Source of the DNA: Candidatus Undinarchaeales archaeon
Lineage (GTDB): Archaea > SpSt-1190 > JASMDC01
Direction: 5' to 3'
Assembly: GCA_030753015.1 (NCBI GenBank)
Contig: JASMDC010000042.1
Coordinates: 1-25,331 of the forward strand
Length of the DNA stretch: 25,331 nt
Part shown: in pieces, positions 447-3,959 of the stretch
Numbering within the stretch: position 1 is the stretch's first letter
How the letters are laid out: each line of letters opens with the position of its first letter
Notes under the pieces: model-generated
Told to the model about the DNA's origin: nothing
The model's database searches: none
The model's input: the letters and a program-made list of their open reading frames with translations, nothing else
Translations under genes and position numbers: made by a program

Positions 447-1016
447 TCATGCTCCCTCCAGGAAGTTTCTGAGGATGTCCTTACCATGTTCTGTAAGTAT
501 CGATTCGGGGTGGAACTGAACGCCGTAGATCGGATACTCGCGGTGCTGGACCGCCATGATCTCGTCGGCCTCCGTCCTGCCGGTGATCTCCAACTGGTCG
601 GGGAAGCCCTCCCGGGCGATCACGAGCGAGTGGTACCGGGTCGCGGTGATGGGGGTCGGGACATCGGCGAAGATGCCCGTGCCGGTGTGATGGATGGGGC
701 TCGTCTTCCCGTGCAGGAGGTTGGCCGCCCTCTCGATAGTGCCCCCGAACACCAGTCCCATGGCCTGATGGCCCAGGCACACGCCGAGTGTCGGTATCGT
801 CCTGCTCATCGTCCGCAGTATATCGAGGGTAACGCCCGAGTCCTTGGGATGTCCGGGCCCCGGGCTGAGCACGATCCTGTCGGGCTTCGCCGCCATGGCC
901 TCCTCCAGGGAGATGTCGTTCCGCTCGACGATGATCTCTGCTCCCATCTCGCCGAGATACTGGGCGATGTTGTAAACGAACGAGTCGTAGTTGTCGATGA
1001 TGAGGATCCTAACCAC
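447..1016 (-). CDS. trpG: Anthranilate synthase component II (glutamine amidotransferase)
   Basis: IDNYDSF, SPGPG, GVCLGHQ, RYHSL and GVQFHPES motifs. Start is probably GTG at 1016, overlapping the end of trpE with GGGGGTGG upstream; the ORF track starts at 1025. Confidence 0.96.
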   Translation of the reverse strand: MVRILIIDNYDSFVYNIAQYLGEMGAEIIVERNDISLEEAMAAKPDRIVLSPGPGHPKDSGVTLDILRTMSRTIPTLGVCLGHQAMGLVFGGTIERAANLLHGKTSPIHHTGTGIFADVPTPITATRYHSLVIAREGFPDQLEITGRTEADEIMAVQHREYPIYGVQFHPESILTEHGKDILRNFLEGA

Positions 1017-2434
1017 TGTGGCCACCCCCCAGTACCGACATCATGGCGCCCATCTTGTTCTCCGTCTCTATGAACTCGTTCTCCGGGACCGAGTCGGCGA
1101 CGATGCCGGCGCCCGCTTGCAGGTACGCTTTGTTGCCTTTGGTGAAGATCGATCTGATCGTGATGGCGAAGTCCATGTTCCCGTTGAAGTCGAAGTACCC
1201 CACCGCGCCCGCATATGGACCTCTCCGGGTCATCTCGAGCTCCTCGATGATCTCCATGGCCCTGATCTTGGGCGCTCCCGATACAGTGCCCGCAGGGAAG
1301 CATGAGCGCAGCGCGTCGAAGCAGTCCCGGTCCTTGCGCAGCTTGCTCGTGACGTTAGAGACGATGTGTTGGACATGCGAGTACTTCTCGCAGCCCATGA
1401 GCTCGTCCACCTTGACCGAACCGTACTCGGAGACGCGGCCCATGTCGTTGCGATGCAGGTCCACGAGCATGATGTGCTCGGCCCGCTCTTTCTCGTCGAG
1501 GAGCATGCTCACCTTCAGCTTCTCATCCTCCTCGGGATCCTTGGACCGGGGACGCGTACCGGCCAGGGGGCGGGTGGTGAGGACGCTGTTCTCGAGCCGC
1601 ACGAGCATCTCGGGGGAGGAACCGAAGACCTTCGATTCGTCGAAGTCGATGTAGAAGAGGTAGGGCGAGGGGTTCACCTGCCTGAGGATCCGGTACATGT
1701 CGAACTCGTTGCCCTTGAACGTCGCTTCCGTCCGCCGCGAGATGACCGTCTGGAAGATGTCGCCCGCCCGGATGTACTCCTTTGCCTGCTCGACCGCGTC
1801 CTCGAACGCAGGGCTCTTCATGTTGGTACGCGGTTTGCCGATGGTGAGCTCTTCATGTTCCTCATCACGATAGCCGTTGATAAGACCCTCGACATCCCGT
1901 TCCATCCTGTGCGAGATGAGATATGCCTTCCGGTGGATGTGGTCGAAGCAGACCACCTGTGACGGGATGATGAAGTGGGCGTCGGGAAGGTTCAGTTCGT
2001 CCTTCCTCAGCTCGGGGAGCCGCTCGAAGAAGCGGACGATGTCGTAGGAGAAGTAACCCACCATTCCGCCCGAGAAAGGGAGGAAGTCGACGGGCTCGGC
2101 ACTGAAGTCGTAGAACTCGCGTCGCAGGTACTCGTACGGATTCTCGCACTTTTCCCGGGTACCGTTGAACCGCACCTCGTGCCCCTTGGACCTGAATGAG
2201 AACACCGGATCGAACCCGATGAAGGAGTATCGCGCGGTCTTCTTGGTGCCCTCCACCGATTCCAGGAGGAAGCTCTCGTCCTTGTACTCCTGCTTGATGG
2301 CGGCATAGGCACCGACGACATCGAATCGGTCGAGACGGAGGTTCCGGACACTTGCCGTCAGAAGGTGGTGCTTGGGCGTGGGACTACCTTTGCGCTTCTT
2401 TCCGCCGACGCCAAAGGTGATCCCTCCTTTTCAT
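1009..2434 (-). CDS. trpE: Anthranilate synthase component I; start is non-canonical (putative +1 frameshift from the leader ATG at 2434, or a CTG start at 2361)
   Basis: SFLLESVEG, NPSPY, GSSPE, PLAGT, EHIMLVDL.RND, FPAGTVSGAPK and QAGAGIVADS motifs. The frame is open from 2430 to 1009, but its first canonical start codon (GTG 2256) lies just after the conserved LLES motif. Product identity is secure; the start is not. Confidence 0.93.
2384..2434 (-). CDS. Putative trp leader peptide MKRRDHLWRRRKEAQR (16 aa, single Trp codon)
   Basis: ATG AAA AGG AGG GAT CAC CTT TGG CGT CGG CGG AAA GAA GCG CAA AGG TAG, beginning about 30 nt downstream of a TATA box and immediately 5' of the trpE body. Confidence 0.65.
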   Translation of the reverse strand: MKRRDHLWRRRKEAQR

Positions 2435-2462: not shown

Positions 2463-2470
2463 TATTTAAA
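2463..2470 (-). promoter_or_regulatory. TATA box of the trp operon (TTTAAATA)
   Basis: Archaeal TATA consensus in an AT-rich intergenic region, about 30 nt upstream of ATG 2434. Confidence 0.6.
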
Positions 2471-2491: not shown

Positions 2492-2511
2492 ATTGTACAT
2501 TAATGTACAAT
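2492..2511. promoter_or_regulatory. Paired TRP boxes (TGTACA-TTAA-TGTACA), putative TrpY-type operator
   Basis: Perfect 20-bp palindrome ATTGTACATTAATGTACAAT upstream of trpE. TGTACA is the TRP-box consensus bound by TrpY in Methanothermobacter. Confidence 0.75.
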
Positions 2512-2570
2512 ACATTTGTTGTATACCCCTAGTAAAAGTATAAGAACCGGCCTGGAGCGCATCCTGTCAC

Positions 2571-3959
2571 ATGGACGCCGAGCACCTCGTCCCGCCGGAT
2601 GAACTCTACGATAAAGCGGTCACTTTTTTCGAGGGCGTCCGCAAGTATGATAAGGTCCTGGTGTACGGCGATGGTGATCCTGACGGGATGACCGCTGCGG
2701 TGTGCGTGTCAGAAGTGCTGGACGCACGGCTCGCCAACTACGACGTGCGGTTCACCCGTGGCCAGCTCAACACAAAGGACGTCGAGCAGGTGGCCCAGGG
2801 CAAGTACAACAAGGTCTACTGCACCGATTTCTGGGAGATATACGAGTCGCCTGTCGAGGTCGTGGCCGACATGGTGGAGAAGGTGAAGGAGTTCGTGGTG
2901 TACGATCACCATGACATACGCACCGCGGGTCGCGAGAACCTCGACCGCCTATACGAGGAGCTGGACAGGCGGGGCATCCGTGACCGGTTTACTCTCATCA
3001 ATCCCAATCTCGAGGGTGTCGTGGACGTCCCCAACGGCTCGGCCTGGGAGTACCGTGTAGCCGAGCGATATGTAGCCCGCCATCCGCAGGCCCTGCTCGC
3101 CAAGCATATGTCGCGACTCAAGGAGGTGGCGACGGCAGGAGCGATCCTCGACTACTGCGCACCCCAGTCGGCCGACCTGGTGGCCGAAACGTTGCTCGAG
3201 CATCCCGAGTCGCTCGACTTCGACCGAAAGGGCCTGAGAAAGGCGCTGGACGACTACCAGAACGCCACGCCCGGGGACACTGTCACGTTCACAGCCTTGA
3301 AGGAAGCGCTGCCGCCGCAGAACGAGCTGCTCGGCTCGACATTCGGCATCGCCGGCCGTAACACGTTCGCCAACTGGATCGTCGCCGGATGGCGCGGTGC
3401 CCAAGACGTGTACAAGGCAGCAAAGGCCATGGCCCGCGGCACGGGCTCGTTCAACGACCTTGTCGAGGACACGGGCAGGTTCCCCGAGTTCTTCAAGAAC
3501 GTGAACCGCGTGGAGGGCGAACTGGCGTCCCAGTACGCGGTGTTCGAGGATGACCTCGCGCATCACGAGCGGGGCGAGGACACCACCGCCACCTCGTTCG
3601 ATGACGAGCTTGGACTCGCTGTGTTCCAGTACTCATCGGAGGACCCACTGCGGTTCGCCAGCCACCTTTCCACCAACCTGCGCGACCGGCACCCCGAGTT
3701 CGCATGGTTCGTATACCAGGTCAACGAGGAGAAGGGGTGGGTCGGTGGTAGCCTGCGTCTTGACGCGGAGCACTTCCCCCAGTACGACCTGGCCCGCGCC
3801 GTGGCCGAAGCGTCAAAGGGCATTGACGGGGCACGCGGCGGTGGCCACAGTGCCGCCAGCGGAGCGAGCATGGCCGAGAAGGACCTCCCGCTGTTCATCG
3901 AGCGTATCAAGGAAGAGCTCAGGCAGCAGCGGAAAGGGTCCGACGAAGAACCCGTCTGA
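2571..3959 (+). CDS. DHH-family phosphoesterase (RecJ/NrnA-like) with C-terminal DHHA1 domain
   Basis: DGDPDG (motif I), TDF (II), YDHH (III), GAILD (IV), GSLR and GGGH motifs. TATA-like AAAGTATAAG about 30 nt upstream. Confidence 0.85.
   Translation: MDAEHLVPPDELYDKAVTFFEGVRKYDKVLVYGDGDPDGMTAAVCVSEVLDARLANYDVRFTRGQLNTKDVEQVAQGKYNKVYCTDFWEIYESPVEVVADMVEKVKEFVVYDHHDIRTAGRENLDRLYEELDRRGIRDRFTLINPNLEGVVDVPNGSAWEYRVAERYVARHPQALLAKHMSRLKEVATAGAILDYCAPQSADLVAETLLEHPESLDFDRKGLRKALDDYQNATPGDTVTFTALKEALPPQNELLGSTFGIAGRNTFANWIVAGWRGAQDVYKAAKAMARGTGSFNDLVEDTGRFPEFFKNVNRVEGELASQYAVFEDDLAHHERGEDTTATSFDDELGLAVFQYSSEDPLRFASHLSTNLRDRHPEFAWFVYQVNEEKGWVGGSLRLDAEHFPQYDLARAVAEASKGIDGARGGGHSAASGASMAEKDLPLFIERIKEELRQQRKGSDEEPV

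Follow-up and report, generated by a model that had tools for sequence, protein, structure and literature searches.

A candidate tryptophan-sensing +1 ribosomal frameshift in the leader of an archaeal trpE gene

The trpE gene of Candidatus Undinarchaeales archaeon (assembly GCA_030753015.1), encoding component I of anthranilate synthase, lies on the minus strand of contig JASMDC010000042.1, of which positions 1 to 25,331 form the window analysed here (25,331 nucleotides (nt) in all). Its reading frame contains no plausible start codon. Directly behind the promoter, a 16-codon leader open reading frame (ORF) with a single Trp codon begins in a different frame, and we propose that ribosomes pass from this leader into trpE by a +1 frameshift at CUU-UGG, the frequency of which would rise when Trp-tRNA is scarce. 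We assign this reading a probability of roughly 0.55. The same layout was found in 24 related trpE loci, and the frameshift appears to be the only reading that would fit all of them.

On the minus strand of the window, the trpE frame extends from TGA 2433-2431 to TAG 1011-1009 and is open throughout between these stops. From the TGA onwards it contains no ATG, GTG or TTG until GTG 2256-2254 (2254..2256), and this first canonical in-frame start is the V codon of SFLLESVEG, located after the LLES motif, which makes it an implausible N-terminus. The leader ORF (2384..2434, minus strand, taken as frame 0) begins at ATG 2434-2432, the first ATG 3' of the TATA box TTTAAATA (2470-2463) with none between, and its 16 codons are followed by TAG 2386-2384; the leader peptide is MKRRDHLWRRRKEAQR*. 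Relative to the leader, trpE is in the +1 frame (the leader is in the -1 frame relative to trpE). In the leader, CTT (2416-2414) is followed by TGG (2413-2411), which is its sole Trp codon. Entry into the +1 frame at CTT-T reads TTT/GGC, after which the frame is open to the trpE stop, with 467 codons counted from GGC 2412. The first part of this path, a linker in the trpE frame from TTT 2415 to CTT 2364 (2362..2415), is hydrophilic, variable in sequence and stop-free. The window thus has the composition of a programmed +1 frameshift: two overlapping ORFs, of which the functional downstream one is in +1 and has no start of its own. A first-pass annotation of the same sequence had described a trpE frame without ATG, GTG or TTG before GTG 2256, behind SFLLES, a first ATG after the TATA box that opens a 16-residue ORF in another frame and ends at TAG, a +1 product of 474 residues, and an AGGAGG 6 nt before the CUU that precedes the only Trp codon of the leader. 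Our reading of the frames agrees with each of these statements (the product is the 467 codons from GGC 2412 plus 7), and all coordinates given there are correct.

The proposed shift site, CUU UGG C (2410..2416, minus strand), would place CUU in the P site and UGG in the A site, with GGC as the incoming +1 codon. Upstream of it lies a Shine-Dalgarno (SD)-like element, AGGAGG-GAUC (2419..2428, minus strand), which is complementary to the 16S rRNA 3' tail ...GGAUCACCUCCU; given one bulged rRNA base, the element pairs with ten bases of the tail. The 16S rRNA was not found in the genome bin of the window (G000), and the 16S 3' ends of four related genomes, a same-genus genome included, were used instead; these read ...GGATCACCTCCT, with the tail GGAUCACCUCCU. 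AGGAGG occupies 2428-2423 and is separated from CTT by 6 nt, while the distance from the conserved GAU to CTT is 3 nt. The bin carries genes for tRNA-Leu(GAG), tRNA-Phe(GAA), tRNA-Gly(GCC) and tRNA-Trp(CCA). A search of G000 with aragorn (contigs C21, C32 and others) also predicted two intron-containing tRNA-Trp(CCA) genes, a selenocysteine tRNA, tRNA-SeC(TCA), and an odd tRNA with a four-base anticodon; the presence of two tRNA-Trp genes may be due to contamination of the bin.

The locus was compared with that of the same-genus genome (L002 and L027 are the same and are counted once), which is 92% identical overall at the nt level and has the same layout. The leader peptide is identical, CTT-TGG and CTTCTGA are both kept, the frame relation is unchanged and trpE again has no canonical start before a GTG at codon -15, which is not conserved. 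No other segment of the locus is as well conserved as the leader ORF, in which 50/51 nt are identical, as compared with 70/96 in the promoter and 1039/1155 in the gene body. A single base of the leader differs, at 2417 (CAC to CAT); the change is silent in the leader frame and replaces T by I in the trpE frame. In the body of trpE the two genomes differ by 89 synonymous and 17 non-synonymous codons. For the 28 codons before FLLES the corresponding counts are 9 and 2, which argues that codons upstream of GTG 2256 are translated. From these counts trpE appears to be under purifying selection, and translation of its frame to begin well before GTG 2256. Since such selection also seems to act on the 28 upstream codons, this GTG was rejected as the start.

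The sequence itself appears sound. All words sampled from positions 2150-2650 are present in 11 sequencing runs of six studies, and comparison of this region with the contigs of four runs from four studies gave 0 other letters and 0 gaps at a word depth of 6.6-18; each of these four runs is a possible source of the assembly, and at most three of them are independent. Neither an indel nor an ATG at 2361, two of the findings by which the first-pass annotation had allowed its reading to fall, is present in the contigs of the four runs, and the identity of these contigs rules out a sequencing or assembly error. No RNA dataset is listed among those that contain the stretch; one metatranscriptome run, from a study that does contain it, has next to none of its words and is uninformative on expression. 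It is very improbable that the missing start reflects an assembly indel, or a decaying and unexpressed trpE. G000 is a bin of 117 contigs with 5.01% contamination, which leaves some room for such an artefact; however, the contigs of the four runs are identical at every base, the layout is common to two species, the gene body shows the 89 synonymous against 17 non-synonymous differences given above, and the layout is found in 24 loci with intact genes.

The wider occurrence of the layout was assessed in three sets of trpE loci, obtained from a metagenome scan (4 loci), from a scan in which an alignment of the first six sequences was run against a single genome of each species (68 loci), and from 400 genomes sampled from the larger class of one match, from which 30 loci were fetched that mostly repeat the second set. 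In the third set a trpE match was present in 89 of the 401 genomes searched (G042 included). The window and the 102 loci (L023-L124) yielded 63 distinct parsed loci; those left unparsed were duplicates, loci without an FLLES-type motif and loci whose upstream sequence was too short. Two that the parser did not accept, L055 and L073, were inspected manually, and L055 was added to the loci with the layout and to the tree described below. A leader of the form ATG-(2-9 codons)-NTT-TGG, located 100-200 nt before FLLES, is present in 25 of the 63 loci. In 23 of these 25, trpE is in the +1 frame of the leader, and together with L055 this makes 24 loci, mostly labelled Thermoplasmata or Methanomassiliicoccales. 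They have in common a TATA-proximal ATG, a purine-rich GGGAU, exactly 3 nt, C/U/G-UU UGG, and trpE in +1, so that the arrangement of ATG...NUU-UGG in frame 0 extends well beyond the close relatives: it is kept across TrpE divergence down to about 54-60% identity. The leader peptides of the family follow the pattern M-x(1-4)-[RQEG]-[RGC]-D-x-[FLV]-W. Further downstream, about 30 codons before FLLES, the whole clade has an N-terminal block, L-x-T-x-V/I.

For a closer view of the site, the 24 loci were anchored on TGG; TTTGG is invariant by construction, as it was the selection criterion, and the occurrence of UGG as the A-site codon in 24/24 loci is to be read with this choice in mind. Upstream of the anchor, G is found at position -11 in 24 loci, G at -10 in 22, G at -9 in 22, A at -8 in 23 and T at -7 in 23, and the spacer between this GGGAU and the P-site codon has a fixed length of 3 nt and variable bases. 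The first base of the P-site codon (position -3) is C in 12 loci, T in 10, G in two and A in none; the codons are accordingly CUU, UUU, GUU and AUU in 12, 10, two and zero cases, a distribution consistent with re-pairing of the P-site tRNA one base forward. The base that follows TGG is C in 19 of the 24 loci, though GGN always encodes Gly. Within the conserved element AGG is never replaced by AGA or CGN, and GAT is replaced by GAC only once. It seems that neither reading frame alone can explain these constraints. The GGGAU at -11 to -7, our presumed stimulator of the shift, also stands at normal SD spacing to the TTG of the third frame.

Three other ways of entering the trpE frame near this site were considered and rejected. 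Transcriptional slippage is ruled out by the longest run at the site, which is only T3-T4, and a -1 shift from the TTG frame by the lack of a conserved slippery heptamer in the variable linker. Initiation at the in-frame ATC 2421 (ATH in relatives) is ruled out by L029 and L098, in which a TAG follows right behind; in addition, the codon is missing in L040 and L054, and it abuts the SD-like run.

The linkers of the family support entry at the shift site. The distance from the TTT of the site to the conserved Leu is 9, 13, 15, 16, 17, 18 or 19 codons and always a whole number of codons. In the trpE frame 21 of 21 linkers are stop-free, as compared with 51 of 126 upstream non-coding windows of 16 codons, and the leader frame is stopped in 17 of the 21. 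Almost all loci have a closed trpE frame on the 5' side of TTT; L029 and L098 carry a trpE-frame TAG immediately before it, so that in these two the frame can be entered only at the proposed site or later. In half of the family (12/24: the window, the same-genus relative, L029, L033, L040, L054, L055, L069, L096, L097, L098 and L121) there is no ATG, GTG or TTG between the TTT and the conserved block; L121 has a far-upstream ATG at codon -70. The TrpE of the window contains 0 Trp residues, and TrpE is devoid of Trp in 22 of 23 leader loci, therefore the leader UGG is the sole Trp codon on the path.

The promoter places the leader at the very 5' end of the transcript. The first base of the TATA box of the window (2463..2470, minus strand) is 36 nt 5' of ATG 2434, so that a 5' untranslated region of only a few bases is expected. 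A TATA-like octamer was matched in 13 of the 24 loci, where it starts 27-40 nt before the leader ATG (median 32). Given the usual distance between TATA box and start site in archaea, these mRNAs should therefore be leaderless or nearly so.

From this anatomy we infer the shift itself, its mechanism, the part played by the SD-like element and the response to Trp. The trp mRNA would begin at ATG 2434 or a few bases before it, and ribosomes would initiate there. With CUU, codon 7, in the P site, the only UGG of the leader would come next. As long as charged tRNA-Trp is plentiful, UGG would be read and translation would stop nine codons on at TAG 2386, so that a 16-residue peptide is made instead of TrpE. 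Under shortage of charged tRNA-Trp the A site would stay empty and peptidyl-tRNA-Leu(GAG) could re-pair one base forward on UUU; Gly-tRNA would then decode GGC and the ribosome would go on in the trpE frame. The predicted product is anthranilate synthase extended at its N-terminus by a hydrophilic stretch of about 24 residues. GGGAU, placed 3 nt before the P-site codon, may base-pair with the 3' end of the 16S rRNA during elongation and so promote the shift. The first-pass annotation had proposed such a frameshift from one sequence, and the interpretation is now supported by comparison of loci; all the computational tests that the annotation had named as able to refute it were run, and none of them did so.

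Several observations weigh against the frameshift. Between the window and the same-genus genome the linker shows 0 synonymous and 4 non-synonymous changes, and therefore has no coding signature of its own. GUU, the P-site codon in two of the 24 loci, re-pairs poorly on UUU, and the distance of 6 nt between AGGAGG and CUU is longer than the 3 nt of prfB that the first-pass annotation had quoted. The 24 loci are related, and the counts given here overstate their independence. In the two leader loci that fall outside the 24, L047 and L065, the leader is in the other phase and the TTG of CTTTGG is in frame with trpE, as an ordinary SD-TTG start. In nine of the 24 loci a canonical start in the trpE frame precedes the block, each time with the leader stop at most 10 nt from that start; this is the signature of termination-reinitiation and calls for no frameshift. 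Three further loci have a TTG at the Leu codon of the block. Finally, the window contains a third-frame ORF (2358..2414, minus strand), absent from the account of the first-pass annotation, which runs from TTG 2414, with a well-spaced SD-like element before it, to TGA 2360-2358, and this TGA overlaps the in-frame CTG 2361-2359 (as CTGA).

The last of these observations lead to the strongest rival, which is termination-reinitiation or a non-canonical start. According to this explanation no frameshift takes place: a short upstream ORF, either the ATG leader or the TTG 2414 ORF, is translated to its end and ribosomes restart nearby, in the window at CUG 2361, overlapped by the third-frame UGA, and in relatives at an ATG, GTG or TTG at the leader stop. 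Termination-reinitiation at overlapping stop/start pairs in archaea is reported in PMC6728339. Such a route would account for the conservation of CTTCTGA amid variable flanks in the window and the same-genus genome, for the position of TTG 2414, 8 nt after AGGAGG, and for the close spacing of leader stop and start in 9/9 loci with a canonical start, to which L124 adds a TTG 10 nt past the stop. It is also favoured by the third-frame ORF, which ends on the Leu of the block (YTGA or CTAA) in 10 of 23 loci, the window included, and on GTGA in L067, and by the third frame being stop-free in 18 of 21 linkers, compared with 55% of gene-body windows. However, six loci (L033, L040, L054, L055, L097 and L098) lack both a canonical start 5' of the block and a third-frame stop on YTG, and the CTAA of L024 offers only CTA, which cannot start. 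The overlap comes cheap, as a third-frame TGA necessarily overlaps an NTG of the trpE frame, and openness of the third frame is expected from a hydrophilic linker in the trpE frame because few codons of such a linker have T in second position. In the window 22 nt separate the leader TAG from CTG 2361 downstream of it, and the third-frame TGA overlaps this CTG rather than an ATG, GTG or TTG; a stop near a canonical start is a feature of 9-10 of the 24 relatives. CUG is not known to serve as a start codon in archaea. Moreover, the regulatory logic would run backwards, since stalling at UGG under Trp shortage prevents termination and would lower TrpE, and the in-frame fusions at the leader ATG described below would stay unexplained. 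For these reasons we regard termination-reinitiation as a general explanation to be rather unlikely. In the nine lineages with a canonical start it may operate alongside the frameshift or instead of it, and lineages with an internal start could conceivably use both routes, with basal reinitiation and an induced frameshift.

RNA folding was assessed as well. In the centroid structure of the window a local hairpin (2380..2424, minus strand; GGGAU.ACCUUUGGC paired with GC.GCAAAGG.UAGUC) spans the SD-like element, the shift site and the leader stop. In a stalling-type translational attenuator, in the style of the mycobacterial poly-Cys short ORFs (sORFs), a ribosome paused at UGG would melt this hairpin and expose an internal ribosome-binding site, AAGGU (2391-2387), for initiation at a near-cognate in-frame codon such as ACG 2379 or CUG 2361; the codon exposed in relatives would be an ATG at -39 with an SD before it. 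The pairing of the shift-site region with the 3' end of the leader speaks for such a device, the whole 51-nt leader is conserved (50/51), in several relatives the G-rich element pairs with a C-rich run further downstream, and in L041 a purine-rich run stands directly 5' of the in-frame ATG. The direction of regulation would also be right, and the mycobacterial precedent is described in bioRxiv 10.1101/834739. Nevertheless, the fold of the 106-nt stretch has a z-score of only 0.24, no better than shuffled sequences, and the 24 loci have no hairpin in common, nor a conserved downstream stimulatory RNA structure. An attenuator of this kind would leave the constant +1 relation of trpE and the openness of its frame from TTT onwards unexplained, and it is at odds with the 12 of 24 loci that have no canonical start; no support is known for initiation at ACG or CUG in archaea. 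We thus consider it an unlikely explanation. A trpL-type terminator is not present either: there is no T-run in 2434-2256, in addition to the z-score of 0.24 and the absence of a hairpin shared by the 24 loci.

A number of relatives have trpE and the leader ATG in one frame. In L043 and L117 the promoter, the ATG and the first leader codons are kept, TTTTGG is missing and the ATG runs in frame into trpE. A group of nine rows in the tree (11 loci) has ATG-ATG at codons -53/-52, 29 nt after the start of the TATA box; in one of its members, L052, there is no other canonical start. L038 has an in-frame ATG right before GGG ATT, and L073, 70% identical to the window, reads GTG ATT CAT TTG GGT in the trpE frame and has a frame-0 ORF without Trp. 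It appears from these sequences that the in-frame relatives start trpE at the promoter-proximal ATG or at the motif, rather than at the block. L073:1000-1800 is the closest relative of the window apart from L023/L028; its trpE frame closes about 195 codons past FLLES, and the gene may be interrupted.

A quick maximum-likelihood tree was built from 61 TrpE rows, with L073, L079, L080 and L084 left out. The frameshift layout is found in 24 rows scattered in a 40-row clade (Shimodaira-Hasegawa-like approximate likelihood ratio test, SH-aLRT, 92), the deepest branches included, and the in-frame forms are nested among rows with the frameshift layout. At least 7 changes of state are required on the tree, compared with a mean of 19.2 after shuffling. 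The site is thus kept on the tree, next to fused orthologues in L043, L117, L038, L073, L047/L065 and the ATG-ATG group. The simplest history that fits this distribution would be an old layout which was repeatedly lost by frame fusion, a course also known from other genes with a frameshift.

Repeated loss also bears on a further alternative, namely that the +1 shift at CUU-UGG takes place at a fixed level, without sensing of Trp, as a tolerated correction of an old one-base change. The structural evidence for such a shift is the same as for a regulated one, loss by frame fusion implies that extension and shift are dispensable, and the TGTACA boxes described below could alone regulate the operon at the level of transcription. 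On the other hand, every locus has UGG as the A-site codon of a tryptophan gene, while the rest of the leader varies (the constancy being partly by construction of the set), and the layout has been kept down to about 54-60% TrpE identity. A shift of fixed level is therefore, in our opinion, improbable, and we prefer the Trp-responsive frameshift.

The promoter region has features of its own. Two TGTACA boxes (2509-2504 and 2499-2494) and a TGTA half-site lie upstream of the TATA box (2494..2514, minus strand), and related loci have GTACA-type boxes before and overlapping their TATA boxes (TATAGTACAT). TGTACA is the TRP-box consensus, and the boxes are likely a candidate operator for a Trp-responsive repressor. 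Transcriptional control probably coexists with the leader. In Methanothermobacter thermautotrophicus TrpY binds TRP boxes in the trpY-trpE promoter region, and represses trpEGCFBAD (PMC6737238). That system likewise provides archaeal trp control, and TGTACA-type boxes precede the TATA box here; in contrast to the leader it is transcriptional and protein-mediated, and both could operate in one operon.

Among known systems the +1 frameshift of prfB, the gene of bacterial release factor 2, is the nearest. Both sites combine a slippery CUU followed by U, read by tRNA-Leu(GAG), with an SD-like element upstream; in both, provided that the shift occurs here as proposed, a slow A site is the sensor, the full protein is made in +1 and the output feeds back on the thing sensed. 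The frame-0 product is short in both, and orthologues without the shift exist. The differences are that the A-site codon here is a sense codon, UGG, so that charged tRNA-Trp rather than a release factor would be sensed, and that the shift would occur at codons 7-9 of a near-leaderless mRNA with the SD core 6 nt off (3 via GAU). The likeness to prfB drawn by the first-pass annotation stands for the slippery CUU-U and the SD-like element, and does not extend to the spacing, which is 6 nt from AGGAGG and 3 nt from GAU. The host, moreover, is an archaeon, and archaea are not known to have prfB.

The +1 site of the yeast retrotransposon Ty1, CUU AGG C, and the concept of the hungry codon are treated in PMC5009743. 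The Ty1 heptamer is one base off CUU UGG C, and in both cases a hungry A-site codon would let the P-site tRNA-Leu slip, with GGC to follow. In Ty1 a permanently rare tRNA-Arg sets a fixed Gag/Gag-Pol ratio in yeast, whereas here the tRNA would be limiting only upon shortage of the end product. The +1 frameshift of antizyme (OAZ) is likewise sensor and effector in a biosynthetic feedback loop; however, it senses polyamines at UGA in eukaryotes and its product represses, while here shortage would induce the first enzyme. Attenuation at trpL resembles the proposed system in that a short ORF with Trp codons, directly 5' of trpE, reads charged tRNA-Trp through pausing. The trpL system differs in its tandem Trp codons and in being transcriptional, with alternative terminator and antiterminator hairpins; the leader described here has a single UGG, no T-run and no conserved hairpin, and it overlaps the trpE frame. 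The leaderless mycobacterial poly-Cys sORFs (bioRxiv 10.1101/834739) also sense an amino acid by pausing in an sORF at the 5' end of the operon mRNA and so control how the biosynthetic genes behind it are translated; there, by contrast, a sequestered ribosome-binding site is unmasked, the downstream gene has its own start and the frame does not change.

The site does not seem to belong to a regulon. In G000 the full motif is present only at trpE; four loose matches were found, one of them with an ATG leader. In G041-G045 the motif is present at trpE in 5/5 genomes, with three other matches that lack a promoter or lie inside long ORFs, and a control scan with the reversed pattern gave 0 matches. 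A 27-nt match to the leader pattern, L133 (G043:C169:675-701), codes for MAWSRDWLW and so contains three Trp codons. With no TATA box and a +1 frame that stays open for only about 37 codons, it appears to be a chance match within another gene or antisense to one.

Counted from the conserved Leu codon CTG 2361 to TAG 1011-1009, trpE occupies 1009..2361 on the minus strand; it is followed on the same strand by trpG (447..1025) and trpD (3-446), the latter cut by the contig end, which gives the order trpE-trpG-trpD. The window TrpE scores 522.3 bits against TIGR00564, above the curated cut-off of 517.7, with a match from residue 13, and it has both Pfam domains (PF04715 and PF00425). The products encoded downstream match a GATase domain and then both anthranilate phosphoribosyltransferase domains, so that trpG and trpD adjoin trpE. 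The GTG start of trpG at 1025 sits within the last codons of trpE (…GTGGTTAG), behind a G-rich, SD-like run, GGGGGGTGG (1009-1040, minus strand), and this overlap suggests translational coupling of trpG to trpE. Because GTG 1025 overlaps the end of trpE, it is plausible that control by the leader would extend to TrpG and TrpD through overlapping starts, as the first-pass annotation had thought possible. Divergently from the operon, a gene on the plus strand (2571-3959) encodes a 462-residue protein of the DHH/DHHA1 family and has a 136-bp intergenic region in common with the trp promoter; its DHH match, at 24.4 bits, is under the Pfam cut-off of 28.1.

The taxonomic setting of the operon deserves a comment. 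G000 comprises 3.8 Mb, compared with 0.6-1.2 Mb in 15 relatives of the same class, and a trpE match was found in none of these 15. The window TrpE nests in a Thermoplasmatota-type clade. Between the 16S of the same-genus relative, which lies on its trpE contig, and the 16S of two genomes with the leader, identity is only 78.6%. Horizontal transfer of the trp operon together with its leader is one possible explanation, a wrong classification another. In the tree, the trpE of L035 (labelled Desulfobacteria bacterium) and of L058 (Nitrosotalea sp.) fall inside a group of the ANME (anaerobic methanotrophic archaea)/Methanosarcinales type, for which mis-binning or gene transfer is the likely explanation.

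Sensing by a programmed frameshift is rare, with release factor 2 (RF2) and antizyme as the textbook cases. In a 2016 review on frameshifting (PMC5009743) it is stated, of trans-frame proteins from hungry-codon shifts that would be useful in starvation, that 'no examples are known', and anthranilate synthase is unmentioned there. In a 2013 survey of frame transitions (PMC3711429) the words 'anthranilate', 'tryptophan' and 'trpE' have 0 occurrences each. A 2021 review of archaeal recoding (PMC8211752) gives one demonstrated -1 case, a suggested viral +1 case and no cellular +1 case, and 'tryptophan' and 'anthranilate' have 0 occurrences each. The first-pass annotation had known of no amino-acid operon controlled in this manner, and our search of the full-text literature, most subscription journals and supplements aside, likewise found no published description of the system. 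We put forward, tentatively and at somewhat less than even odds, the view that this 'frameshift attenuator' is the first natural +1 programmed frameshift at a hungry sense codon that induces an amino-acid operon upon shortage of its end product, without a regulatory protein or RNA switch and on a leaderless archaeal mRNA. In the same tentative view, it would be ancestral to the Thermoplasmatota-type trpE clade, would be present with promoter and leader also in a lineage whose 16S is only about 79% identical to that of the clade, and would be the first cellular +1 programmed frameshift in Archaea.

The 24 loci, together with their in-frame relatives, form a natural set of mutants in which the proposal can be tested. 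There is also a practical side to the finding: automated gene prediction will shorten trpE or misplace its start in these genomes (in the window, the first canonical start removes the LLES region), and metabolic reconstructions of marine and sediment archaea could then class Trp prototrophs as auxotrophs. If the proposed reading is true, archaeal ribosomes can use SD-like elements during elongation, and the trpE leader would represent a new and very economical mode of regulating amino-acid synthesis.

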